DNA of 64,000 nt from Escherichia coli (GTDB taxonomy: Bacteria; Pseudomonadota; Gammaproteobacteria; Enterobacterales; Enterobacteriaceae). Shown here piece by piece: positions 3,061 through 60,051 of this stretch. The notes under the pieces were generated by a model. It saw only the letters and a list, made by a program, of their open reading frames with translations, did no database searches and had not been told where the DNA came from. How positions within the stretch are numbered: position 1 is the stretch's first letter; the number at the start of each line of letters is the position of its first letter. Made by a program: the position numbers and the translations under genes. The stretch is taken from the NCBI GenBank assembly GCA_020819635.1, contig GCA_020819635.1_4533.1; one strand, given 5' to 3'.

Positions 3061-4059
3061 ATGACAAAACAGATTTCGGCTAGTATTATTGCGCATTCCA
3101 TCACTGAAGACGGAAAAGAGATTGTAACTTTTGAACTAGAATATCCACGTATTATTCATTCAGAATTGATGACTCACCGCCTGTTCAGTCGTAATGCTGC
3201 TTCTAGCCGTGCTATACCTGTTAAAACACTGATTGAAATGGTGCGAAATCAACCTGCTCGTCCTTATCGTTTTGGGGCTAACCAACCTGGTATGCAGGAT
3301 AAAGGTGTTGATCATGACGCTCTTATTGATGCAGGTTATACTGCTCAAGAGTGGTGGGATCTTGCCGCGCTTAGTGCAGCACGTTTTGCAGAAGAATTTT
3401 CTTTGGCAGGGTACCACAAACAAGTTGCAAACCGTCTTCTGGAACCTTTCCAACGAATTAAAACAGTTCTGACAGCAACAGAATATGAAAATTTCTGGTG
3501 GCTACGTGATGACAAAGAAGCCGATCCTACTATCGAAGCTTTGGCTAAAGAGATGCACAAAGAGTATGAAGGATCTACACCAGAAGTGCTGAAACCAGGG
3601 CAATGGCACACACCTTATGTAGACCATTTCTATGATACTATTGGCACAGAAGGTGACGATCATTTTGTTTTTGGTGGATACTACGTTCAAAATGAATCTG
3701 GAGAAGTCGTTGTGCTTACTTTGGAAGAAGCCAAAGCTATTTCAGCTTCGTGTTGTGCACAGGTTAGCTATCGTCGTTTAAATGCAACTAAAGATAAAGC
3801 TTTAGATATCTATGGTCGCTTGCTGACTGGGCGCAAGGTTCATGCTTCTCCGTTTGAACATCAAGCCACTCCAATGCAAGAAACATGCGAACAATATGGA
3901 GAGAACTGTTTTGAAGATTTGTTTATCAATGCTCCTTGGGATTTTAACTCTTGGGAACCAGGTATTACCCATGTAGATCGTAATGGTAAGTTTTGGTCTG
4001 GCAATTTCAAAGGCTGGATTCAACATCGTCAACTTTTAACAAATCATACTAAATGGTGA
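3061..4059 (+). CDS. flavin-dependent thymidylate synthase (ThyX)-like protein, divergent
   Basis: THRLFSRNAASSRA matches the ThyX signature RHR-x7-S...R, but the first Arg is Thr. Confidence 0.5.
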   Translation: MTKQISASIIAHSITEDGKEIVTFELEYPRIIHSELMTHRLFSRNAASSRAIPVKTLIEMVRNQPARPYRFGANQPGMQDKGVDHDALIDAGYTAQEWWDLAALSAARFAEEFSLAGYHKQVANRLLEPFQRIKTVLTATEYENFWWLRDDKEADPTIEALAKEMHKEYEGSTPEVLKPGQWHTPYVDHFYDTIGTEGDDHFVFGGYYVQNESGEVVVLTLEEAKAISASCCAQVSYRRLNATKDKALDIYGRLLTGRKVHASPFEHQATPMQETCEQYGENCFEDLFINAPWDFNSWEPGITHVDRNGKFWSGNFKGWIQHRQLLTNHTKW

Positions 4060-9046: not shown

Positions 9047-10039
9047 ATGCGCTATCTGGTAACAGGTGGTCTTGGTTTTATTGGGAGTGCCGTGGTGCGC
9101 TCTCTTTGTCAAGATCCCAATAACGAAGTTTTTGTCGTTGATAAGATGGGCTATGCAGCAGATATTGAGAATGTAGGCGATATCACTCACGTTAAACTAA
9201 GCATAACAGATTTGGCAAACGAAACCCAGGTCAAAAGTTTAGTAGTAGAGTGCAATCCCGATTTCATCATTCACTTAGCGGCAGAGAGTCATGTGGATAA
9301 TTCTATCAAGAATCCACGAGTTTTCATCGACTCCAATATTATTGGTACATACAATTTATTGGAAGCTGCAAGGCTCCTCCCAAAAAATAAACTTAAGATG
9401 TTCGTACATGTCTCCACAGACGAAGTGTACGGCGATATGGCAGACTCTGGCGTTCCCTTTACCGAAGAGACAGCTTATGCCCCTTCAAGCCCGTACAGTG
9501 CGTCTAAGGCAGCATCTGACCATCTTGTGAAAGCTTGGTACCGTACCTACGGTTTACCTGTTGTGATAACCAACTGCTCCAATAACTTTGGACCTTATCA
9601 ACATCCAGAAAAGCTGATCCCAAAAATCATCACAAGTATCTTGACGAATAAAGAGATTCCGGTGTATGGTAAAGGCGATCAGGTGCGAGACTGGCTTTTT
9701 GTTGAGGATCATGCGCGAGCTATTCTTCAAGTGGCAACAGGTGGAGAACCAGGTCAAACGTATAATGTTGGAACACGTAATCCCAAAACCAATATGGAGA
9801 TCATCTATATGGTTTGTGACTACATGGATGCTGTACATCCAGAAGCAGGAACCTACCCTTCTTCCAACTTGATAACTTTTGTTGAAGATCGTAAAGGACA
9901 TGACTTGCGTTATGAAATCAATCCTTCTAAAATAGAGTCTGAACTGGGTTGGAGTGCAAACTCTACATTTGAACAAGATCTCTACTCAACGATTGAATGG
10001 TACTTAAACAACCCTCAATGGTGGAGTAAGAAGATTTAA
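9047..10039 (+). CDS. rmlB: dTDP-glucose 4,6-dehydratase
   Basis: N-terminal Rossmann motif [10 protein letters not shown]; family-typical [24 protein letters not shown]. Confidence 0.9.
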
Positions 10040-10047
10040 GGAGGGTT

Positions 10048-10926
10048 ATGAAAGGTATTATTTTGGCGGGAGGAAGTGGAACCCGCCTTCATCCGGTAAC
10101 ACGCAGTGTGAGCAAGCAATTGCTCCCTGTGTATGACAAACCCATGATCTACTACCCCTTATCGGTATTGATGTTGGCTGACATTAAGGATATCTTAATC
10201 ATCACCACACCAGGCGATCAGGAAGACTTTGAGCATCTTCTTGGAGATGGGTCTATGTTTGGGATAAAACTCACTTACGCAATCCAATCCGAGCCACGAG
10301 GTCTTGCGGACGCTTTCATCATCGGTAAAGATTTTATCGGAGAAGACTCTGTTGCTCTTATTTTAGGTGACAACCTATTCTTCGGACAAAGCTTTGGTAA
10401 ACTACTGATTAACGCTAGTGAGATGGTAGATGTTTGGGGCGGAGCTTGTATCTTCGGGTGTTTGGTGAAAGATCCTGAACGATTCGGTGTGGTTGAATTT
10501 GGGAGTAATCGTCAAGTTATTTCTATTGAAGAGAAACCTGAAAATCCTAAATCAGATTATGCTGTCACAGGTTTGTATTTCTATGATAACTCTGTTATTC
10601 AACGTGCATTAGAAGTAACCCCTTCCGCGCGTGGAGAACTGGAGATCACCGATATCAATCGCAGCTACCTCGAAGACAGGAAGTTACAAGTAGAAGTTCT
10701 CGGACGAGGATTTACTTGGCTTGACACAGGAACACACGCCAGTCTGATGGAAGCTGGTCAATTCGTGCAGACTATTGAGAACTGTCAAGGATTGAAGATT
10801 GCGTGCCTGGAAGAAATTGCTTTCAAAAAAGGGTGGATTTCTTTAGAGACTTTGGTCTACCATGGAAACTCACTGAAGAAAACAGAGTACGGGCAATACC
10901 TACTCAAATTAGCGGAGGGAAAATGA
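10048..10926 (+). CDS. rmlA: glucose-1-phosphate thymidylyltransferase
   Basis: [18 protein letters not shown] nucleotidyltransferase signature. Confidence 0.9.
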
Positions 10927-15317: not shown

Positions 15318-15752
15318 ATGTTACAAGTTCCTGCTAAGTTTGTTGAAGGCGCTATCCACTCTTACCGTCAAACATGTAAGAGGGCAAGAAACTGTTTAGA
15401 TGGTCTGGTGGCAAAAACCTATACTGTTGAAAAGAAGAAACGTTGGTTTGGCAAAGATGTTTACGAAGTTAATATTTTTGGTGAACATAAACTAAACCAC
15501 GATACTCCTGAAAACATGTTAGAAATATTTCTAAGAGATGACAAAATATCTCCTATGGATTACCAACTTTTAAAATTTTATGATTCTTCTTTGGCTATTG
15601 ATAAGTTTGTTGAAGATATTCTGTCTAGAAAAACAGATAAAAACACTTATCCTCTAGAGGCTGATCAAATAGGATTATTAAACGAGATTTCATCCTTTAA
15701 AGAGTTGGATAATATTACAAAAGAGGAGATTTTAGATGGCATTAGATTATGA
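15318..15752 (+). CDS. hypothetical protein
   Basis: 144-aa ORF. Confidence 0.5.
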   Translation: MLQVPAKFVEGAIHSYRQTCKRARNCLDGLVAKTYTVEKKKRWFGKDVYEVNIFGEHKLNHDTPENMLEIFLRDDKISPMDYQLLKFYDSSLAIDKFVEDILSRKTDKNTYPLEADQIGLLNEISSFKELDNITKEEILDGIRL

Positions 15753-16245
15753 TCGCCCAACGAGCGATTATTATCCGACACCGCAAAAAGCAATCAATAG
15801 TTTGTTTAGTGTTATAGATTTCAAAAATCTAAAGGAAGAAGGTTGGGTTTTTGCAGAACCTTGCAGAGGTGAAGCTGAAGCGATTTATCGCCATTTTCCT
15901 GAAGGTTCAGAATATTGCGAACTTGAAGAAGGTAAAGATTATTTTAGTCATGAATGGGAAAATCGTCCCGACATTATAATCACAAATCCTCCATTTAAGT
16001 TAGCAATGGAGTTCTTGGAAAAGAGCTTAAAAGAGGCGGATGTTTGTATTTATCTTCTTCGGTTGGGCTTCTTGGAGTCAAAGAAACGACGAGAGTTCCA
16101 TCAAAAGAATCCACCAACAAACCTTATAGTCCTTTCAGAACGGCCTTCGTTTGTTGCAGGTGGAACAGATAAGACAGCATACGCTTGGTATGTATACGAC
16201 CCAAAGAATCGTTTGGGCCTCTCTCAACCATTTTATTTTGTTTAA
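15736..16245 (+). CDS. putative SAM-dependent methyltransferase, N6-adenine MTase-like, minimal size
   Basis: motif I-like FAEPCRGEAEA followed by motif IV IITNPPF; only 169 aa. Confidence 0.4.
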   Translation: MALDYDRPTSDYYPTPQKAINSLFSVIDFKNLKEEGWVFAEPCRGEAEAIYRHFPEGSEYCELEEGKDYFSHEWENRPDIIITNPPFKLAMEFLEKSLKEADVCIYLLRLGFLESKKRREFHQKNPPTNLIVLSERPSFVAGGTDKTAYAWYVYDPKNRLGLSQPFYFV

Positions 16246-21248: not shown

Positions 21249-21271
21249 AACCCGCTTCGGCGGGTTTTTTA
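21249..21271 (+). terminator. intrinsic terminator
   Basis: AACCCGC-TTCG-GCGGGTT followed by TTTTTT. Confidence 0.6.
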
Positions 21272-21300
21272 TTGACAGGAATCTGGAAGCTTGATAAACT
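21272..21300 (+). promoter_or_regulatory. sigma70-like promoter
   Basis: TTGACA, 17-nt spacer, TAAACT. Confidence 0.5.
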
Positions 21301-21330: not shown

Positions 21331-22272
21331 ATGGTGTTAATTGGTAGCCGTGCATTGCAAATTCATGCTATGGACATGGGAAAAGACTTGTATCGCCCTT
21401 GTGTAGATTTAGATTACCTGTGTACAGAACAAGAGTGGGAAGAATTATCAAAAATGTTCTCTCAAGAGGAGTTTGTTGAACTTGTAGAACGTAAAGGAAA
21501 CAAAGGCCATGTCAAAATGATAGCTGGTGCACATTTGGAATACGATATTGCTTCTCAAGGAGATAGCACAGAAGCTTTGATTAGTTATTGTGAAGATTCT
21601 GATGATGTTCGTCGAACTTACGCTGGACATGTTGTTGCTCCTTTAGATGTGCTCTACCTTCTTAAAATGAGTCATCGTTTTAAAAAGGATAGTCCTCACT
21701 TCTTTAAAACTATGAAAGATATTCATTTCATGCGGTCACTGGGCGCAAAGATCCCAGAAAATCTTAAGAGTATTTATGAGTTGCGTGAGAAAGAAACATA
21801 CACTTACTCTCATCCGAACTTAAACGTAAAAAGTAAAGACTTTTTTAAAGGTGATGAGGTTCCGTATGTTTATGATCATGATTCTATCCATGAAGCAATC
21901 GCGGTAATGGATGCTCCGGCATATAAATCTTATATGAAAGATGGAAGTGAAGTTATGACCAGCAAAGAAAAGTTTTTTGCTCAACCAAAACATGTGCGCC
22001 TGTTAGGTGTTTATGAAGAAGCGTGTGTTTTGGCTTTGGAACGTTCACAAATTCCTTTCGGTGGAGAGATCGGAGGTCCAACCCCTAAGCAAAGTTTTAT
22101 AATGGCTTTATCTAAAGTCTGCACATCCATCACTAGTGGTTGGTTTAGGGAATATGCTTGGGAAAACTTTTATGTTGTTATTAAGCTATATGAAAACATG
22201 GGCGAAAACGACTATGTTGAACGTTTTAAAGCTAATCAACATGTAGTAAAGCCTTTTGAAGGAGGTTATTAA
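21331..22272 (+). CDS. hypothetical protein, possible nucleotidyltransferase-like N-terminus
   Basis: 313 aa; LIGSRAL...DLD loosely resembles a Pol-beta-type GS...DxD motif; weak. Confidence 0.45.
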   Translation: MVLIGSRALQIHAMDMGKDLYRPCVDLDYLCTEQEWEELSKMFSQEEFVELVERKGNKGHVKMIAGAHLEYDIASQGDSTEALISYCEDSDDVRRTYAGHVVAPLDVLYLLKMSHRFKKDSPHFFKTMKDIHFMRSLGAKIPENLKSIYELREKETYTYSHPNLNVKSKDFFKGDEVPYVYDHDSIHEAIAVMDAPAYKSYMKDGSEVMTSKEKFFAQPKHVRLLGVYEEACVLALERSQIPFGGEIGGPTPKQSFIMALSKVCTSITSGWFREYAWENFYVVIKLYENMGENDYVERFKANQHVVKPFEGGY

Positions 22273-22273
22273 T

Positions 22274-22669
22274 ATGTGTGGATATCTTTCAGAAAGTTAT
22301 TTCAAAGTGACGCACGAGGATTTAGAAAAAGCACGATTGAAACTGACAGCTATTATTGAATACTCTAATACTGTTGATCACAGATTAAAGACTACTAAAG
22401 TATCTGTTCCTTGTTGGTTAGGTTTACGGCATAAAATAATGTCTCAACATGACCATGTTGTTCGAGAGATGCATGGTTGGTGTTGGTTTCACGATGTGGC
22501 TCTGCATTTTGGTTATATTACAGAAGAAGAGCATAGATTCTGTGAACTAACGTATCGTATTCCAACCCTTCACGATTTAGATTTGTGGAAGAAAGCAAAC
22601 GAGATTTTTCTTACAGAAAGTGATTGGCGTAAAGTTATGGCTTGTCTTGAATGGAGGGGTAATGAGTAA
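22274..22669 (+). CDS. hypothetical protein
   Basis: ORF from MCGYLSE after GAAGGAGG RBS. Confidence 0.45.
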   Translation: MCGYLSESYFKVTHEDLEKARLKLTAIIEYSNTVDHRLKTTKVSVPCWLGLRHKIMSQHDHVVREMHGWCWFHDVALHFGYITEEEHRFCELTYRIPTLHDLDLWKKANEIFLTESDWRKVMACLEWRGNE

Positions 22670-23345
22670 AACAGTTTTGTCTATGTTTGACGGATCTGGG
22701 ATCATGGTGTTACGTTATGCCGAAGCAGGTCACAAGTGTTTTTGTGTAAACGCTGATGAAGGGGATCACGGTAAATACGAGGTTAGGATGGAGCACCCAA
22801 ACATAACCTATGTTAATGCCTGGATAGATTCTACATTCAACCCTGAAGATCATGGGATACCTAAACCCGATATTATTTTTGGATTTCCACCTTGCACTAT
22901 GTTAGCAGGTAGTGGTAGCAAACACGAACGCAGCACAGAGGAATTGGATGAAGCTTTAGCTAATATTCGTGTAGTGGAAGCTTTGGGTAACAAATATAAT
23001 GTTCCTTGGATGATTGAGAACCCAGTAGGTAAACTTTCAACCTTATGGCGTAAACCCGATTTTTACTTTGATCCTTATGAGTATGGTGGGTATTTGTTTG
23101 AAGAGGAAGGAAGCTTTCATCCTAAAATGCCTACCCGTGATGGGTATACAAAGAAAACTTGTATTTGGCACGGCAATGGTTTTGTTCAACCAGTGAAGAA
23201 ACCAGTAGATCATATAGGCTGCTTCTGGGGTTGGAAAAGCTTAGGTGGAGCTAGTGCAAAAACAAAACAACTTAGATCACTAACCGCACGTGGTTTTGCT
23301 CGTGCAGTGTTTTTGTCTAACAATATTCTAGATAAGGAGAAATAA
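22662..23345 (+). CDS. C5-cytosine methyltransferase-like protein, minimal (catalytic core only)
   Basis: motif I-like LSMFDGSG, catalytic PC motif GFPPCT, ENV-like WMIENPVG; only about 228 aa, no recognisable target-recognition domain or motifs IX/X. Confidence 0.5.
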   Translation: MSKTVLSMFDGSGIMVLRYAEAGHKCFCVNADEGDHGKYEVRMEHPNITYVNAWIDSTFNPEDHGIPKPDIIFGFPPCTMLAGSGSKHERSTEELDEALANIRVVEALGNKYNVPWMIENPVGKLSTLWRKPDFYFDPYEYGGYLFEEEGSFHPKMPTRDGYTKKTCIWHGNGFVQPVKKPVDHIGCFWGWKSLGGASAKTKQLRSLTARGFARAVFLSNNILDKEK

Positions 23346-23998
23346 TGTTAAATTCAAAACCAGTGGTTGCTTATCAAGTAGATCGTAATGATGGTGAAGG
23401 AAGTGTTGTTATTTTCAGTACACACGGTCTTGAGGCTCGTCGAAAAGGTGCATATCGTTTAGAATGTGAGTTTGAAGACTGCACAAGCCACCGTGTCAAA
23501 CAATTCGATCAATATGCTGATAAAGGCTTCGTCCCTATCAAAGCGTTACTGGAAGATGGTTGGTGGGTATATTCTGCTTTTGATTACTCAAAACTGGAGG
23601 AGTCAGCTTCGTGCGCCTCCGAGATCGAATATGATGATTACTATGACACTCTATACCTTCCAGAATGGCTTGTCTTTTCTCCTGATGAGAGAAGTGTCTG
23701 GAAAACGTGGGAAGAAATGGAGAGACATGCGTATAGCATCAATGAAGCTTTAGATCGTAAAGCTTGGTTTATTGAGGCAGTAAAGGCGGCATACCCCCAA
23801 TTCTCATTCTGTGATTTCACTGGCGGCCCAGGATACATTACACATACAGCCTCTTTTGAGTTTCCTGGTTCACGTTATAAGGGTAATGTTTATTGGGACT
23901 GGGATGAAAATAAACAACCTTCGGCTCAAGACTTCCGTTGCTATGTTTGTCAAGGCGATCAAGAAGCCCTTGACAAATACCTACAAAGTCTGGTATAG
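23345..23998 (+). CDS. hypothetical protein
   Basis: 217-aa ORF, ATGA-coupled to upstream MTase-like gene. Confidence 0.5.
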   Translation: MLNSKPVVAYQVDRNDGEGSVVIFSTHGLEARRKGAYRLECEFEDCTSHRVKQFDQYADKGFVPIKALLEDGWWVYSAFDYSKLEESASCASEIEYDDYYDTLYLPEWLVFSPDERSVWKTWEEMERHAYSINEALDRKAWFIEAVKAAYPQFSFCDFTGGPGYITHTASFEFPGSRYKGNVYWDWDENKQPSAQDFRCYVCQGDQEALDKYLQSLV

Positions 23999-24015
23999 TG
24001 CCAGCATCTGAACAA

Positions 24016-24046
24016 AGCCTCCTGTTTCAGGGGGCTTTTCTTTTAT
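24016..24046 (+). terminator. intrinsic terminator
   Basis: AGCCTCCTG...CAGGGGGCT imperfect hairpin followed by TTTTCTTTT. Confidence 0.5.
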
Positions 24047-24056
24047 AGGAGGGAAT

Positions 24057-24542
24057 ATGTTTCAAGTAAATGTCAATGTGCATAATAGTTACTCTGATTG
24101 TGAAACGTGTGGCTATAATTCATCTAATGTTATTCGTATTAGTGGCGATTTAGGAGAAGCTTCTTTTGGAGAAGAAGCAAGTTGCTTTAGTGGTATGGAT
24201 GCAGAATGGAATGATATTGCACATTGGTTAGTGAGCAAACTAAAAGAAAAAGAGAAACCATTTCCTACTCTGCTTGATCGTTCTCTTGTGGAAGATGCAG
24301 GTAAAGCATATGCAGACTATGCGTATGCAGACGGGAAATATTTGGAAGATGATAAGGCTAACCATTTGCTTTATGTTTACTATGAAGCTGAATCTGCCTA
24401 CGATAATTATTACAGCATGTCTAACATCCTACGTCTGTTTGCAGAGTTTGATATTTATTTCGAAGTAGAATTTTCAGAAGATGATACTTACGAGTACAAT
24501 TCTTATGATCCATTTGAGGAGGAAGAATGCCAAGACGAGTGA
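24057..24542 (+). CDS. hypothetical acidic protein
   Basis: 161-aa ORF, D/E/Y-rich. Confidence 0.45.
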   Translation: MFQVNVNVHNSYSDCETCGYNSSNVIRISGDLGEASFGEEASCFSGMDAEWNDIAHWLVSKLKEKEKPFPTLLDRSLVEDAGKAYADYAYADGKYLEDDKANHLLYVYYEAESAYDNYYSMSNILRLFAEFDIYFEVEFSEDDTYEYNSYDPFEEEECQDE

Positions 24543-25342
24543 TTTTTGTAAGCGGTGCAGGTTTAAGTGCAGACAGTGGGATTCGAACATTTAGAACAGA
24601 CACAGATAGTGGTCGTGCTTTATGGGAAGAATATGATTTAGAAGAGGTCTGCGATATTGGAGCTTTCCAAGCAGGTTATCGTGTTAGAACATCTCCAGAT
24701 CTTCCAGTGGTCGGTGGTGTAGACGAGAACGGTATGGATTTGTATGCCAAAACACACGAATTTTATAACAAAAGACGTGTTGAGCTTAAAGATGTACAAC
24801 CTAATGCTGCACATATTCAAATAGCAAAGTGGTTTAAGGAATATCCTAACCAAATAGTAAACTTGACAACAAACGTTGATGATCTACTAGAGCGAGCAGG
24901 TGTAGACAGAGATTCTGTTATTCACGTACACGGATATCTTCCTGAAGTAGTTTACCGTATGCATCCTGGAGATTACAAAACACTGGTAGATATTGGTTAC
25001 AATAGTATAAACATAGATGATTATAACTGGGTGAAGCCTAATGTTGTATTTTTTGGTGAGGCTGCACCTTTGTATGCAGATATGGCTCACTTGTTCGATA
25101 CTTTGACCATGCAAGATTTGGTTGTAGTAGTAGGATGTTCAAACCAAGTTATCAATTTTAATTGGGAATTATTTCCTGCACTTAGTATGGGTACAAAAAT
25201 GGTTGTAGTTAACCCTGGAGTTAATTACGAAGAAACACTTCTCTATGAAGATCGTGGAGTTTTTGTTTACCGAGAAAAAGCTGCAACAGCCTTCAGCAAT
25301 GAAGGTTTCATTAAAATGGTCGAAGACCACTTAAACAAATAA
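24527..25342 (+). CDS. Sir2-family (sirtuin-like) NAD-dependent protein, lacking zinc ribbon
   Basis: GAGLSADSGIRTFR, TTNVDDLLERAG, HVHG, VVFFGE motifs match the Sir2/CobB catalytic core; no CxxC...CxxC zinc module. Confidence 0.75.
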   Translation: MPRRVIFVSGAGLSADSGIRTFRTDTDSGRALWEEYDLEEVCDIGAFQAGYRVRTSPDLPVVGGVDENGMDLYAKTHEFYNKRRVELKDVQPNAAHIQIAKWFKEYPNQIVNLTTNVDDLLERAGVDRDSVIHVHGYLPEVVYRMHPGDYKTLVDIGYNSINIDDYNWVKPNVVFFGEAAPLYADMAHLFDTLTMQDLVVVVGCSNQVINFNWELFPALSMGTKMVVVNPGVNYEETLLYEDRGVFVYREKAATAFSNEGFIKMVEDHLNK

Positions 25343-25351
25343 ACCACTCAA

Positions 25352-25373
25352 GGGGCTTCGGCCCCTTTCTTAT
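25352..25373 (+). terminator. intrinsic terminator with UUCG tetraloop
   Basis: GGGGC-TTCG-GCCCC followed by TTTCTTATT. Confidence 0.6.
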
Positions 25374-32172: not shown

Positions 32173-32844
32173 CTATTTAATGTTCAGTCTGGCACACAAA
32201 CGAGAAACAGTTTTAGCATCCCATTTACCACCACGTGCTGTTGCTATTTTCTTACTATTGAATTTTTCAGCAATAGTTTTGTAAGGTGTATTTAAATCTC
32301 TAAGGATCTCCAAGCGTTCACGGAATGTCTCTGCAAAAGCGTCTGCTTTAACAGAATTGTATTCCATTTTTCCTTTTCTACGTGCAGCGGCAGTTTTAGG
32401 ATTAGCACTGCCTAATAAAACACCTTTGCTTTTTGCTACAGCAAGACCCTTTTTAATACGATCAGCAATACCTCTAACTTCTTGTTCAGCCAGAACAGAC
32501 AGAAGCTGTATAACCATTTTATCTGCGTCTGGCATGATGGCTATCTTAACATCGATCATTTCTAGAAGAGTTGCTACAGAGGCGTTGTTACGACCCAAGC
32601 GGTCAACTTTAGCTACCAATAAAGTTGCTCCGGTAGCTTTACACATTTCAACCGCTTTAACCAGTTCCTTACGTTGCTTCCAATCGCCCTTGCCCGAATA
32701 GTATTCAGAAAATTGACCAATAACTTCCGCATCAGGCACAGAGTCTAAGAAGTAACGGATATCATTCTCTTGGCTCTCCATACCATATTGTGCCTCACCT
32801 TTTTTCTGTTTAGAAAGACGACTGTAAACAACAAACTTTTTCAT
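32173..32844 (-). CDS. small serine recombinase (resolvase/invertase family)
   Basis: catalytic VYSRLSKQ (Ser nucleophile), VDRLGRN, C-terminal HTH ATARGGKWDAKTVSRL; own TTGACA-17-TAAAGT promoter upstream. Confidence 0.75.
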   Translation of the reverse strand: MKKFVVYSRLSKQKKGEAQYGMESQENDIRYFLDSVPDAEVIGQFSEYYSGKGDWKQRKELVKAVEMCKATGATLLVAKVDRLGRNNASVATLLEMIDVKIAIMPDADKMVIQLLSVLAEQEVRGIADRIKKGLAVAKSKGVLLGSANPKTAAARRKGKMEYNSVKADAFAETFRERLEILRDLNTPYKTIAEKFNSKKIATARGGKWDAKTVSRLCARLNIK

Positions 32845-32914
32845 AACCACTCCTAAACCATTGCTGTATTCTCACTTTACAAAACGAATAAACACTTGTC
32901 AAGGTATTTATTAT

Positions 32915-56271: not shown

Positions 56272-56814
56272 TCACAAATATCGTCTTTGCGGTATTTTGT
56301 CTGGGAAAAGTATTTCGATCAGTTTATTATGATATTTGCCTAAAAGATTCTGCCCTTTCCAGGTAGCAGGGTTTAGCACCCCTGGTTCATACATTCCCAT
56401 TCCAATACCGTAAACCTTATCGTAAGGACTTGCTTCAACAAACGTTTTGTATTGGTAAAGGTGTAAATCTGCATACAAATCTGGATTCTGTACATATTTC
56501 AAGCATAAGCCTCGCATAACAATACGCTCACGGTTCTCTTCCCACATATCATTATTAAAACCAGATACCGCTCGACCCATACGTTTGTAGTATGCTTGTT
56601 TCCTCTCGTTGTCACGTATAGTTGAGTGATCAAGGATAGCTGCTGCAATCGCATGATCCTTGAACAGCAAAGCCTTACGCCACATCATATATTGCTCAAC
56701 ACAACAGAAAGTCTCATTGTAACCTGGTTCAGTTTCTGTAAAGGGTGCAATATACCAATTACTAAACACATCTTTATGTGAAAAGAAGAATACATATTCA
56801 TCAGTTATTCTCAT
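56272..56814 (-). CDS. NADAR-domain protein (YbiA-like)
   Basis: VFFFSHKDVFSNWY and VEQYMMWRKA match NADAR family hallmarks. Confidence 0.75.
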   Translation of the reverse strand: MRITDEYVFFFSHKDVFSNWYIAPFTETEPGYNETFCCVEQYMMWRKALLFKDHAIAAAILDHSTIRDNERKQAYYKRMGRAVSGFNNDMWEENRERIVMRGLCLKYVQNPDLYADLHLYQYKTFVEASPYDKVYGIGMGMYEPGVLNPATWKGQNLLGKYHNKLIEILFPDKIPQRRYL

Positions 56815-57026: not shown

Positions 57027-57369
57027 AAACTGCGTCTGCGTCGATGAGTTTGTGTTTGTTGTTCCGCATGTAGTCTAAGATAAGTAGACGTTTATTGTAT
57101 CTGGAGAGATTATGACCCTCTTTTCCGCCATAGTCAAAATATTTTGCAAGATCTTTACACTCAAACAAAATCAGTTCGGGAGTTTCTTCACACTGGTCTG
57201 TCTGGTACACTTGACGAATGATCATGTATACATCGTCGTCTTCCGCTAAATGCTCTACTGGTCCACATCCAGCAGGAACAAATTCATAGTCCCATCTGAT
57301 CAGATGTTTCTCTACTGCTTCAAAGAAGTCCATTCTTTCGTTGCGCATAATTTGAACGTCAACTAACAT
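57004..57369 (-). CDS. hypothetical protein
   Basis: 121-aa ORF. Confidence 0.45.
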   Translation of the reverse strand: MLVDVQIMRNERMDFFEAVEKHLIRWDYEFVPAGCGPVEHLAEDDDVYMIIRQVYQTDQCEETPELILFECKDLAKYFDYGGKEGHNLSRYNKRLLILDYMRNNKHKLIDADAVYGYWWMD

Positions 57370-58823
57370 GTTTCCTCCTCTCTCATTATTCCACCTGCTT
57401 GGTTGATAGCACTTAAGACGATAGCCAAATCCTCGCGCAGGAAGGTTTCACTATGACCATCTTTCATGTGCAAGCGTTCTACACAGCCAATAGACGGTAG
57501 AATCTGATCAGTCTTAGACTTTAGCTTACTCTCTAACGCCCTGCAAGCTTGGTAGGACGGCAGATCGAACAATGCTATACGGCGCATAGAGTAATTGTTG
57601 TTTGCATTCTGCCCTTTGATCCTGATATCACTGTCCTTTGCAATCCCCAACTTGTAAGCTCCCGTGTCTTCTCCGTACTCATCAAGAATAATATTGATGT
57701 AAAATTCTTGCATATTTCTGTTCTTACAGCCTGGACAACCTTTCCCATTGAGATAATCGGTAGGTGTGATCGTTTGCTCTCCATGCTCCCTACATAGATA
57801 TTTAAACTTGCTGTTATTGCTTACCTTATCAATGAATCCTATAAATTGATCCCCTCGTTCCTGGCAAGCTTTGGTCATACGGTAGGCCCATTGTTCAGGA
57901 GTGTAATGATAATATTTAGAACAACGGCAAGGAAGGCCACCCCTTTTCAAATGACTCATCTTCATCTCAAATTTATTATCGCATAAGCCTTCTTTACAAT
58001 AATCATCCTCTGCACATATAGGACATTCTACAATCCAGTAAACCTGACGACCTAATCTATCTACTCTATCGCTACGATAATATTTACGCTCTACATTATC
58101 AGGACAAGCTTTTATAAAATCTTCAACATGTTGTTTATCCTCCATTGTATTCCTTTGTTTCGTCATTTCTCTTTGACAACTGTAGCATCCAGTCCCTTGT
58201 TTAGCACTGTTTACAGTGGTAGTGCACCATTGACCATGAACCTTACACTCACAAATCAACTTAGTGCGGGAACCGTTCCACGGTTCCACATAGCCTCTAA
58301 CAATCCAGGGTTTTTCTTTATAAGCTTCTTCTACTTCTTCTTTATGTTTCTCCCATGCAATCGATGTTCTTTCTCTGTTTGCTTCTCCCATACACTTCCT
58401 GCATCCACTCCCGTTTTTCGCAGAAGATATAGAAGTAGACCTCCACTCCCCATGTAAAGCACAACAACAAACCAGTTTAGTATTCCATCCTTTCCATTCT
58501 CCGTGCCATCCTGTAACAGTCCAAAACTTACCTGCCTGATTGTAAGTGGTTTGCACTTCTTCTTTATATTGCTCCCAGGTTTTTGATTTGTTTATAGATA
58601 CTGCTTTACTTATAATCTCCCTACCGCATTCTGGACAACCCCTCCCTAGTTTAGCGGTATTTATGCTTGTTGTTTTCCATTCTCCATGCAGAGCACAGAT
58701 GCATCTAAGTTTAGTTTTATTGCCGTTCCACGGCTCAATATAATCTACAACAGTCCAAGACTTACCTTGATAAGCTTGTTTTATATCTGTTTTATATTGT
58801 TCCCAAGTGACTATTTTTGGCAC
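57363..58823 (-). CDS. Cys-rich protein with three tandem zinc-ribbon-like repeats and a possible GIY-YIG/T5orf172-like C-terminal region
   Basis: three ~60-aa repeats W..Y...W...W.G..TKL.C.C..HG.W..T......K.G.GC..C; C-terminal YKLGIAKDSDIRIKGQN; putative homing-endonuclease-like. Confidence 0.4.
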   Translation of the reverse strand: MPKIVTWEQYKTDIKQAYQGKSWTVVDYIEPWNGNKTKLRCICALHGEWKTTSINTAKLGRGCPECGREIISKAVSINKSKTWEQYKEEVQTTYNQAGKFWTVTGWHGEWKGWNTKLVCCCALHGEWRSTSISSAKNGSGCRKCMGEANRERTSIAWEKHKEEVEEAYKEKPWIVRGYVEPWNGSRTKLICECKVHGQWCTTTVNSAKQGTGCYSCQREMTKQRNTMEDKQHVEDFIKACPDNVERKYYRSDRVDRLGRQVYWIVECPICAEDDYCKEGLCDNKFEMKMSHLKRGGLPCRCSKYYHYTPEQWAYRMTKACQERGDQFIGFIDKVSNNSKFKYLCREHGEQTITPTDYLNGKGCPGCKNRNMQEFYINIILDEYGEDTGAYKLGIAKDSDIRIKGQNANNNYSMRRIALFDLPSYQACRALESKLKSKTDQILPSIGCVERLHMKDGHSETFLREDLAIVLSAINQAGGIMREEETC

Positions 58824-58911: not shown

Positions 58912-60051
58912 TTAGAACACGCTACCAAGTGTAGTGGAACGTTGTGTTACAGGCTCCAGCACCACTCGCAAAGTGTTTCCTGGTGTAGTGCTCATAACCA
59001 GAATCTTACCACCTTCAATCAGATCACAAGTTAGACCATCAGCCGTTGCACATAGATCAATATGTGGATCACCATCTTCATCCAGGATAACATAACTGTT
59101 GGTTTCCATTGCTTCCACTTCATCATCTTTCAAACTTTGTAGATAGATGTTCAGGGAACAAGCGCCCGACAAAAACTTAGTAGGGGTGAAGTCGTGCCAG
59201 TTATTGATCCAATTCACCTTCAAGGTTTTGCCATTAGCTACGATAGAAGCCACATTCCATTTAGCATCGTTCCCTAAAGAAATACCCATCATTTCAAGAC
59301 ATTCTTTAAAAGTCATTTTTGGATAGAAATTCAATTCTTCTACAATGCCTTGAATAACATCGAAAGACAACTCTGTGCTAACATCCCATAAACGTTGGAA
59401 GTTATCTACGTGCTTTTTATTTACCAAGTTCTTATCCAAGTAATCTAACATAGTTTCACTAGACAGTTTATCGTAATTGAAACTGTAGTAGATACGACTA
59501 GGACGGTTTACAAAATATTCCGAGATATAACCACTATTTTTAGTGAGGATGTAAAGTTTATTCCCACTTCCTGTTCCATCCAACAAGGTCAACAGTGCTT
59601 CCTGATCTTCTTTCTTAGCGTACACTTTATCAAATTCGTCAAATAAAACAACAGCACGATCTGTAATTTTACTCATAAATTCTAAGAAGCCAGCATCTGT
59701 GTAAGGCTGTGTAACCAAAATGGTTGGAATACCTAAACCTTCTGTGGACATTAGAGACATGCTAATTAGTTTAGCTAACATCGTCTTACCACTGCCTTTT
59801 GTCCCTGTCAGTAACACCCCAGTATTTTTACCTTCTTTACTACGACGAGCAAATGTTTTAATAACATGTGCGGCGCGATCTTTAGTTTCCCCATAAAGAG
59901 TGTTCGGAAGAGAGAAACTTTCACCACGCACTAAAGAGTAGTTACCGTGCGGATCGCAGTTGACAACCCAAACTCCAGCAGGAAGTTTATTAGCTTCAAC
60001 GCCATATTCCTTATTTACAACAGCTACATCTCCAAAAATAGTGTATTTCAT
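58912..60051 (-). CDS. AAA+/P-loop ATPase
   Basis: Walker A GTKGSGKT and Walker B VVLFDEFD. Confidence 0.6.
   Translation of the reverse strand: MKYTIFGDVAVVNKEYGVEANKLPAGVWVVNCDPHGNYSLVRGESFSLPNTLYGETKDRAAHVIKTFARRSKEGKNTGVLLTGTKGSGKTMLAKLISMSLMSTEGLGIPTILVTQPYTDAGFLEFMSKITDRAVVLFDEFDKVYAKKEDQEALLTLLDGTGSGNKLYILTKNSGYISEYFVNRPSRIYYSFNYDKLSSETMLDYLDKNLVNKKHVDNFQRLWDVSTELSFDVIQGIVEELNFYPKMTFKECLEMMGISLGNDAKWNVASIVANGKTLKVNWINNWHDFTPTKFLSGACSLNIYLQSLKDDEVEAMETNSYVILDEDGDPHIDLCATADGLTCDLIEGGKILVMSTTPGNTLRVVLEPVTQRSTTLGSVF

Follow-up and report, generated by a model that had tools for sequence, protein, structure and literature searches.

A compact C5-cytosine methyltransferase-like protein without a target-recognition domain in a Phapecoctavirus coliphage, and its relation to the adjacent ORF217

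The gene pair and its phage

The stretch of DNA analysed here (64,000 nucleotides (nt), contig GCA_020819635.1_4533.1; hereafter the window) belongs to a Phapecoctavirus (phAPEC8-like) coliphage and carries two adjacent genes, the first encoding a compact C5-cytosine methyltransferase-like protein of 227 amino acids (aa) and the second a 217-aa protein, here called ORF217 (ORF, open reading frame). The 4.1-kb region around this gene pair is 100% identical to Escherichia phage vB_EcoM_3A1_SA_NWU and at least 99% identical in approximately 26 other Phapecoctavirus genomes (phAPEC8-like, Stephanstirmvirinae). In the records of these relatives, the methyltransferase ORF is named 'DNA methyltransferase', 'Dcm', 'putative site-specific DNA methylase' or 'hypothetical protein', and ORF217 is a 'hypothetical protein' in every one of them. 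The methyltransferase gene starts with ATG, with GGAGG four bases 5' of the start, and its junction with ORF217 reads TAATG, a 1-nt overlap, rather than the ATGA coupling given in the first-pass annotation of this DNA. A separate Shine-Dalgarno sequence, AAGGAG at 23334-23339, precedes the ATG of ORF217 by five bases. Both genes are the last two of a tightly packed four-gene unit (Table 1), so that tight coupling is not special to the pair.

Table 1. Coordinates of the four-gene unit and of its boundary features in the window
Position	Strand	Feature	Basis or remark
21249..21266	+	Terminator-like hairpin, end of preceding transcription unit	Consensus scan: 7-bp stem, 5 G-C pairs, T run
21272..21300	+	Candidate sigma-70-like promoter of the four-gene unit, TTGACA-17-TAAACT, TG extended	Consensus scan, 10/12 matches
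21331..22272	+	Gene 1, 313-aa DUF7277/DUF7275 protein (PHROG 2141)	Pfam, PHROG
22274..22669	+	Gene 2, 131-aa protein (PHROG 16551)	Alternative TTG start at 22256 gives 137 aa
22662..23345	+	Gene 3, compact C5-cytosine methyltransferase-like protein, 227 aa (PHROG 757)	
23345..23998	+	Gene 4, ORF217, 217 aa (PHROG 8514)	
24014..24038	+	Intrinsic terminator-like hairpin closing the four-gene unit	11-bp stem, 6 G-C pairs, T-rich tail

Motifs and predicted fold of the 227-aa protein

The motifs FDGSG, GFPPC and ENPVG, on which the first-pass annotation had based its assignment, are present in the order and spacing of C5-methyltransferases (F9DGSG13, G74FPPC78 and E119NPVG123, respectively). Taken with the predicted fold, the conserved catalytic Cys and Glu and the length of 227 aa, they bear out the description of a C5-methyltransferase-like catalytic domain lacking a canonical target-recognition domain (TRD). 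Motif I (F9-D-G-S-G13), the S-adenosylmethionine (SAM)-binding loop of such enzymes, follows strand 1; its residues G11 and G13 are invariant in the close family, and in the wider family the motif loosens to [FYC]-D-x-x-G. Motif IV (F75-P76-P77-C78) follows strand 4, with P76 and C78 invariant or at least 90% conserved and the residue just before the Cys variable in relatives (P/D/S/E/V). Motif VI (E119-N120-P121-V122) follows strand 5 and differs from canonical ENV by a one-residue Pro insertion; among 72 family representatives, E119 and P121 are invariant and N120 is at least 90% conserved.

Residues C78, E119 and N120 are invariant in relatives of 60-74% identity and invariant or at least 90% conserved in those of 32-58% identity, and Pro76 and the Asp/Asn at the end of strand 2 are also kept down to approximately 32% identity, a pattern that argues for an active enzyme. 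It weighs directly on the idea of a relic without catalytic activity, or of a SAM-binding decoy, with a non-enzymatic role such as SAM depletion or the binding of a host factor. The failure of the protein in curated family models, the degenerate motif I of the wider family and the missing TRD and motif VIII arginines would agree with such a role; nevertheless, the nucleophile Cys, the motif VI Glu-Asn and the strand-2 acidic/amide residue have been retained family-wide as in an active enzyme, and we consider a dead relic highly improbable.

An AlphaFold model built from 29 homologues (predicted local distance difference test (pLDDT) 85, predicted template modelling score 0.85) has a seven-stranded Rossmann-type methyltransferase core, with the class-I fold and the topology of the catalytic domain of C5-methyltransferases. 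According to this model, the entire 227-aa protein is essentially one C5-methyltransferase catalytic domain. Its best structural matches are DNA enzymes, and RNA 5-methylcytosine (m5C) methyltransferases have a lower score and fewer aligned residues.

The protein matches PHROG 757 ('DNA methyltransferase') over its full length (E=1.6e-84, residues 1-225 on profile positions 13-223 of 247), and residues 1-126 also give matches to the type II methyltransferase and DruM cytosine-methylase models of PADLOC (E=1e-4 to 4e-3). The best sequence match in the PDB is M.HaeIII (E=0.08), with FxGxG and PC in register, and DNMT2 is among the other weak PDB matches. A proof of membership by sequence alone did not emerge, as Pfam, NCBIfam, PDB phmmer/hmmsearch and hhalign against Dcm and a canonical profile were all weak, with only motifs I-IV or I-VI aligning. 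Because these searches are weak, the case for a C5-methyltransferase rests on fold and motif conservation.

Comparison with known C5-methyltransferases

Compared with M.HhaI, M.HaeIII and E. coli Dcm (PF00145), the compact protein has 227 aa instead of approximately 327-472 aa and lacks the small/TRD domain. It has approximately 75 fewer residues between motif VI and the C-terminal motif and a tail shorter by approximately 27 residues, as well as ENPV for ENV, T for Q after the Cys, and YTKKT where QxRxR is expected. ENP and the C-terminal motif are 86 residues apart (family median), whereas 161 residues separate ENV from motif IX in canonical enzymes, and the tail after the C-terminal motif is 15 residues vs 42. 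The catalytic domain of DNMT3A/DNMT3B is only 19% identical to the compact protein; DNMT3 keeps a TRD loop of approximately 50 residues, acts as a DNMT3-DNMT3L or homo-tetramer and carries N-terminal regulatory domains. Like the compact protein, M.CviPI (GpC), M.SssI (CpG) and phage GpC[C/T] enzymes (Burke et al., 2021) are stand-alone, virus-borne and without cognate endonuclease, and orphan phage and viral C5-methyltransferases are presumed to shield viral DNA (Burke et al., 2021). Those enzymes are, however, full-length PF00145 proteins with TRDs, which the compact protein does not have.

Size, spread and genomic context of the PHROG 757 family

A protein search with the methyltransferase returned 871 clusters at 90% identity, the best 120 of which are all 210-267 aa long, at least 60% identical and derived from phages and prophages of many enterobacteria. 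An exhaustive search of 50%-identity representatives gave 964 at E<=0.001; 107 of the best 150 are 200-260 aa long (median 226 aa), and only six exceed 300 aa. By tblastn, the family was detected in 1,488 of 50,697 phage records (approximately 3%). The carriers include Klebsiella T1-like Webervirus and other siphoviruses of approximately 45-50 kb, RB49, rV5 and other Vequintavirus, a Felix O1-like phage, lambdoid mEp515, P1-like D6 and an Azospirillum phage. Homologues in bacterial genomes were found in Yersinia, Serratia, Photobacterium, Bradyrhizobium, a PVC-group genome and approximately 14 Hymenobacter species. The Hymenobacter homologue (approximately 203 aa, 32-37% identity) lies in a conserved prophage-like early region adjoining a CI/LexA-type repressor gene, which extends the reach of the family into Bacteroidota.

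In the contigs of approximately 50 kb that dominate the viral sample, the compact gene adjoins replication genes, and in one viral locus it lies between an HNH gene and a UvrD-like helicase gene. Clustering of the ORFs within 3 kb on either side in 80 viral loci and within the 4-kb flanks of 39 bacterial loci revealed no universal neighbour, and neither a restriction endonuclease nor a Vsr partner recurs beside the compact gene in these loci. The compact build without TRD is thus a stable property of a large and mobile family of single genes and does not reflect a truncation confined to the present phage. The 'Dcm' of KP15/KP27 is a different enzyme of approximately 300 aa. PHROG 757 is a family that is already widely annotated, lies outside the curated Pfam and NCBIfam models and, as far as could be found, is uncharacterised.

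ORF217 is a separate, lineage-restricted protein

ORF217 is a genuine conserved gene (PHROG 8514, E=5e-89), although its family is narrow, with 14 protein clusters vs 871 for the methyltransferase and 159 phage records. Searches of Pfam, NCBIfam, PADLOC and PDB sequences with ORF217 gave zero matches, and no similarity to the methyltransferase fold was seen. Its model, of moderate confidence (pLDDT 71), has two domains with an acidic linker of low confidence (residues 87-102) between them, and its predicted fold is of the generic cystatin/NTF2-like roll type. A fold search of BFVD yielded, as the sole full-length match at E<=0.001, an uncharacterised protein of Pseudomonas phage PaMx11.

The first-pass annotation had proposed that ORF217 could supply the functions missing from the methyltransferase, that is, a split enzyme with a 227-aa catalytic subunit and target recognition or the missing motifs on ORF217. 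The model for such an arrangement is M.AquI, a split C5-methyltransferase of alpha and beta subunits, in which the catalytic motifs are on one chain and the rest on the product of the adjacent gene, the second polypeptide having a recognisable TRD and motifs IX-X. The 1-nt overlap of the two genes within one transcription unit bounded by terminators would fit this proposal, as would the ORF217 homologues that follow the methyltransferase within approximately 0.7-0.9 kb in five related loci, with identities as low as 31%, and the one that also adjoins a methyltransferase in Justusliebigvirus. Unlike the second subunit of M.AquI, however, ORF217 has no similarity to a TRD or to motifs IX-X and is not co-inherited with the methyltransferase: a homologue is present in five of the 80 viral loci carrying the methyltransferase, and a search of 39 bacterial loci yielded none. 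All five viral loci share the downstream Sir2-like gene, and four of them also share the upstream DUF7275 gene (homologous to the 313-aa DUF7277/DUF7275 gene of the present unit), so that the co-occurrence of ORF217 reflects lineage synteny.

The sister genus Justusliebigvirus (phi92-like phages) is equally informative. Phage EmilieFrey has the gene order 131-aa homologue, methyltransferase, ORF217 homologue, homologue of p161 (a 161-aa protein encoded downstream of ORF217 in the window) and sirtuin, the 131-aa homologue being 25% identical and at the same position. The slot of the compact gene holds there (MZ501063, 2391-3380; bas61_0190) a full-length, canonical Dcm-like PF00145 enzyme (E=1.7e-43) of 329 aa with its own TRD. 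This enzyme is not an orthologue of the compact protein, with which it shares 26% identity in the N-terminal 128 residues only. ORF217 is therefore equally at home beside an enzyme that already has a TRD, and the exchange of a compact for a canonical enzyme between sister genera defines a 'methyltransferase slot' that supports a role of the compact protein as DNA methyltransferase. Moreover, the distant ORF217 homologues of Vibrio phage MAR and Pseudomonas phage PaMx11 have no methyltransferase nearby. The distribution, the generic predicted fold, the slot exchange and these methyltransferase-free homologues speak against the proposed complementation and leave a split enzyme very improbable. 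ORF217 is a separate, lineage-restricted accessory protein and not a methyltransferase subunit; the most that can be suggested is that it is a small binding or regulatory accessory protein.

Nucleotide and sugar genes and the question of hypermodified DNA

The methyltransferase had also been linked, speculatively, to a pyrimidine hypermodification pathway through a divergent ThyX-like protein, a deoxyribonucleotidase-like gene and an rml operon. The identities of these genes stand: the first belongs to the ThyX family, the second encodes an NT5C-like nucleotidase and rmlB/A/C/D is complete. The ThyX-like protein (3061-4059) is long (332 aa), matches Pfam (E=5e-8) and PHROG 85 (phage thymidylate synthase, E=3e-108), and has the motif THRxxSxxxxSSR, in which THR replaces the first RHR (THRLFSRNAASSR). 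Together with a class I ribonucleotide reductase, these genes form a separate block 10-20 kb upstream of the methyltransferase, and they are nucleotide and sugar-nucleotide metabolism modules unrelated to it.

For a hypermodification pathway, the enzyme would make 5-methylcytosine or a related handle, which would then be oxidised and rhamnosylated by means of the phage rml operon and glycosyltransferases. Rhamnose glycosylation has been raised as a speculation for these phages before (Olsen et al., 2020), and, besides the complete rml operon, four adjacent glycosyltransferase-like genes are present in the same genome, outside the window (OR062524.1, 104738-107882). They lie in the replication module between primase/helicase and endolysin genes, near DNA polymerase I and N6-adenine methyltransferase genes, and one of them shows a weak 42-residue match to the T-even beta-glucosyl-hydroxymethylcytosine glucosyltransferase PHROG (E=4e-6). 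A sugar-transfer pathway thus exists in the phage genome, although nothing ties it to the methyltransferase or, so far, to DNA.

Several observations run counter to the pathway. By Pfam, neither a TET/JBP or other 2-oxoglutarate dioxygenase nor a ThyA-type hydroxymethylase is encoded among approximately 100 window ORFs of at least 90 aa and 37 further ORFs of the genome, and no glycosyltransferase gene was found in the window. The rml genes are approximately 11-13 kb and the glycosyltransferase-like genes more than 80 kb from the methyltransferase, as opposed to characterised clusters of C5-methyltransferase, TET and glycosyltransferase genes, whose members lie within approximately five genes of each other (Burke et al., 2021). 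In the near-identical phage anhysbys, rmlB and rmlA (9047-10926 of the window) are absent (a difference of approximately 1.9 kb, leaving rmlC and rmlD only), and yet the methyltransferase and ORF217 are kept. Vequintavirinae and phi92-like relatives are reported to be exceptionally susceptible to restriction-modification despite their putative deoxythymidine diphosphate (dTDP)-sugar machinery (Maffei et al., 2021). Finally, C-containing palindromes are strongly avoided in the window, as detailed in the following section. The speculation is not upheld, and we hold a hypermodification pathway involving the methyltransferase to be most improbable. The gene pair is accordingly neither a new two-component enzyme nor evidence of hypermodified DNA.

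Restriction-site avoidance in the window

Over the whole window (1-64000), GGCC, GTAC, CCGG and CTAG occur at 0.33-0.48 of expectation (observed vs expected: GGCC 27 vs 83, CCGG 33 vs 77, GTAC 69 vs 178). Of 56 palindromic hexamers, 12 do not occur at all, among them GGATCC, CTGCAG, CGATCG, GGCGCC, GCATGC and TCCGGA, and palindromes are underrepresented in comparison with other words (Mann-Whitney test: tetramers, p=6e-5; hexamers, p=4e-9). CCWGG, GATC, GCGC, CGCG, ACGT, TCGA, AGCT and TGCA are not avoided. Hexamers built around such non-avoided cores are nonetheless absent or rare (AGCGCT, GGCGCC, CAGCTG, CTGCAG and GTCGAC), and no methyltransferase target can therefore be named from word statistics; in word counts of this kind, deamination of 5-methylcytosine and relief from restriction act in opposite directions. 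The statistics argue against broadly masked phage DNA and, given the avoidance of GGCC and CCGG, GpC-wide or CpG-wide methylation by the compact enzyme is unlikely.

Substrate and activity of the compact enzyme

The explanation that we favour, and regard as probable, is that the compact protein works by itself as an orphan m5C DNA methyltransferase with a narrow specificity and represents a large and very divergent phage-borne clade, PHROG 757. It builds on what was observed directly: the fold of the model, the motif order, the conserved catalytic residues, the mobility as a single gene and the slot exchange with a canonical enzyme. The enzyme would bind SAM and flip a cytosine out of duplex phage DNA, whereupon Cys78 would attack C6, Glu119 would protonate N3 and the methyl group would be transferred to C5. 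It may act alone or as a homo-oligomer, with the short conserved FWGWK...KTK loop and the catalytic loop presumably giving a narrow, family-wide specificity. By analogy with other orphan phage methyltransferases, the methylation could protect freshly replicated phage DNA at one class of host restriction sites. Self-sufficiency is suggested because the compact size is the norm of the family, the gene is a single-gene module in unrelated contexts and no neighbour is common across these contexts. The surroundings are in line with this explanation, since the window also carries other genes of accessory or counter-defence type, encoding Sir2-like, NADAR and Acb2/Tad1-hairpin proteins.

A number of points weigh against this explanation. 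At the level of motifs, QxRxR of motif VIII appears, in a comparison made without a residue-level structural alignment, to be replaced by the conserved Y162-T-K164-K-T166, which precedes strand 166-171; a separate motif IX appears to be missing, with a single C-terminal motif, (I/L)RSxTPRGFAxAV (LRSLTARGFARAVF in the 227-aa protein), that may correspond to motif IX or to motif X; and strand 7 is separated from the C-terminal helices by only approximately 27-30 residues (172-198), with no TRD. At the level of family models, the Pfam PF00145 score is 11.6 bits (E=0.18), below the gathering cut-off of 22, and only two of 72 family representatives reach E<=0.01 (70 of 72 fail); the NCBIfam search gave zero matches, and hhalign of the family profile against a canonical profile aligned motifs I-IV only (probability 42%, E=2.7e-4). 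An enzyme without TRD would need another way of reading a DNA sequence, and literature searches found neither biochemical nor methylome evidence for any member of the compact family. The strong avoidance of GGCC, CCGG, GTAC and many 6-bp palindromes means that any protection must be narrow. In published phenotyping, no simple link between methyltransferase genes and restriction resistance was seen in Drexlerviridae, many of which carry the compact family, and Vequintavirinae, likewise carriers, were very restriction-sensitive (Maffei et al., 2021).

Several of these points could equally be accommodated if the C5-pyrimidine methyltransferase chemistry were directed at a substrate other than duplex DNA, such as tRNA or other RNA (as for DNMT2), single-stranded DNA, or a free or cyclic nucleotide, with a role other than restriction evasion. 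The missing TRD, the apparent replacement of the motif VIII arginines, the published lack of correlation between methyltransferase genes and restriction resistance, and the restriction-site avoidance that persists in the window are all compatible with this alternative. The unusually high conservation, with at least 60% identity among phages that infect many hosts, is easier to reconcile with a universal substrate than with restriction sites that vary, DNMT2 is among the weak PDB sequence matches, and the neighbours include putative nucleotidyltransferase-like and Sir2-like proteins. On the other side, the best structural matches are DNA enzymes, with RNA m5C methyltransferases scoring lower, and the same slot of the sister genus is occupied by a canonical DNA C5-methyltransferase. 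Since DNMT2 retains a full TRD, the lack of this domain does not mark an enzyme as RNA-specific, and we know of no SAM-dependent C5-methyltransferase that acts on free nucleotides. As to a local tRNA substrate, the window contains zero tRNA genes, the phage tRNA cluster being elsewhere in the genome. Overall, a substrate other than duplex DNA appears unlikely, though less so than the inactive, split-enzyme or hypermodification alternatives.

Beyond the favoured DNA methyltransferase, a more far-reaching and doubtful proposition is that the PHROG 757 proteins (approximately 200-230 aa, TRD-less, in approximately 3% of phages and in prophages from Proteobacteria to Bacteroidota) might be the smallest natural C5-methyltransferases, with either an undescribed mode of target recognition or a substrate other than duplex DNA. 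Candidate modes of recognition would then be an aromatic and basic loop of approximately 30 residues, obligate homo-oligomerisation or structure-specific recognition, and a very common phage gene would carry the label 'Dcm' without being one. What remains of interest at this locus is a common TRD-less family, present in approximately 1,500 phages (among them rV5-like, RB49-like, T1-like, Felix O1-like and lambdoid coliphages). If active alone, the protein would be the minimal unit for sequence-directed cytosine-5 methylation and could be put to use as a small module for methylation. With a substrate other than DNA, on the other hand, annotations would have to be corrected by the thousand. The specificity of the compact enzyme would also help to explain the missing correlation between methyltransferases and restriction resistance in the BASEL phenotyping.

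Other genes of the unit and of the phage genome

The candidate promoter of the four-gene unit is a consensus match only, and the regional number of such sites is not above that of shuffled sequences. ARNOLD terminators are annotated in phage Schickermooser at positions equivalent to those of the two hairpins in Table 1. The 313-aa protein encoded by the first gene of the unit matches DUF7275 (E=7.5e-76) and DUF7277 (E=1.1e-13) in Pfam and PHROG 2141 (E=8e-127), and its N-terminal GS...DxD pattern (LIGSRAL...VDLDYL) suggests a possible nucleotidyltransferase fold. The stop of the 131-aa gene overlaps the start of the methyltransferase gene by 8 nt.

The next unit (24057-25342), which has a promoter-like site (23970-23999) and a terminator (25350-25367), encodes two proteins that are kept in phi92-like phages: p161, which is acidic and rich in Cys (PHROG 9509; 'putative aminoacyl-tRNA synthetase' in a BASEL record), and a Sir2-family protein of 271 aa (Pfam E=1.9e-22). 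A second small ORF annotated as 'DNA methyltransferase' (15736-16245, 169 aa) belongs to PHROG 799 (E=2.8e-59); it has no Pfam match, and the PADLOC type II methyltransferase model matches it weakly, at residues 68-110 only. Small early genes on the minus strand (56275-56814, 57366-58823, 58915-60051 and 32176-32850) encode a NADAR-domain protein (E=3e-35), a 486-aa protein with CapR homology repeats, an AAA/STAND-like nucleoside triphosphatase and a resolvase-domain protein, and Pfam matches in the same block include an Acb2/Tad1 hairpin domain (E=2e-16), a phage Tudor domain and DUF7325. Elsewhere in the same genome (OR062524.1, approximately 112500-119700), a Ter-type cluster comprises genes for TerD, TelA, vWA-TerF, a ComF-like phosphoribosyltransferase, cREC_REC and Macro proteins.

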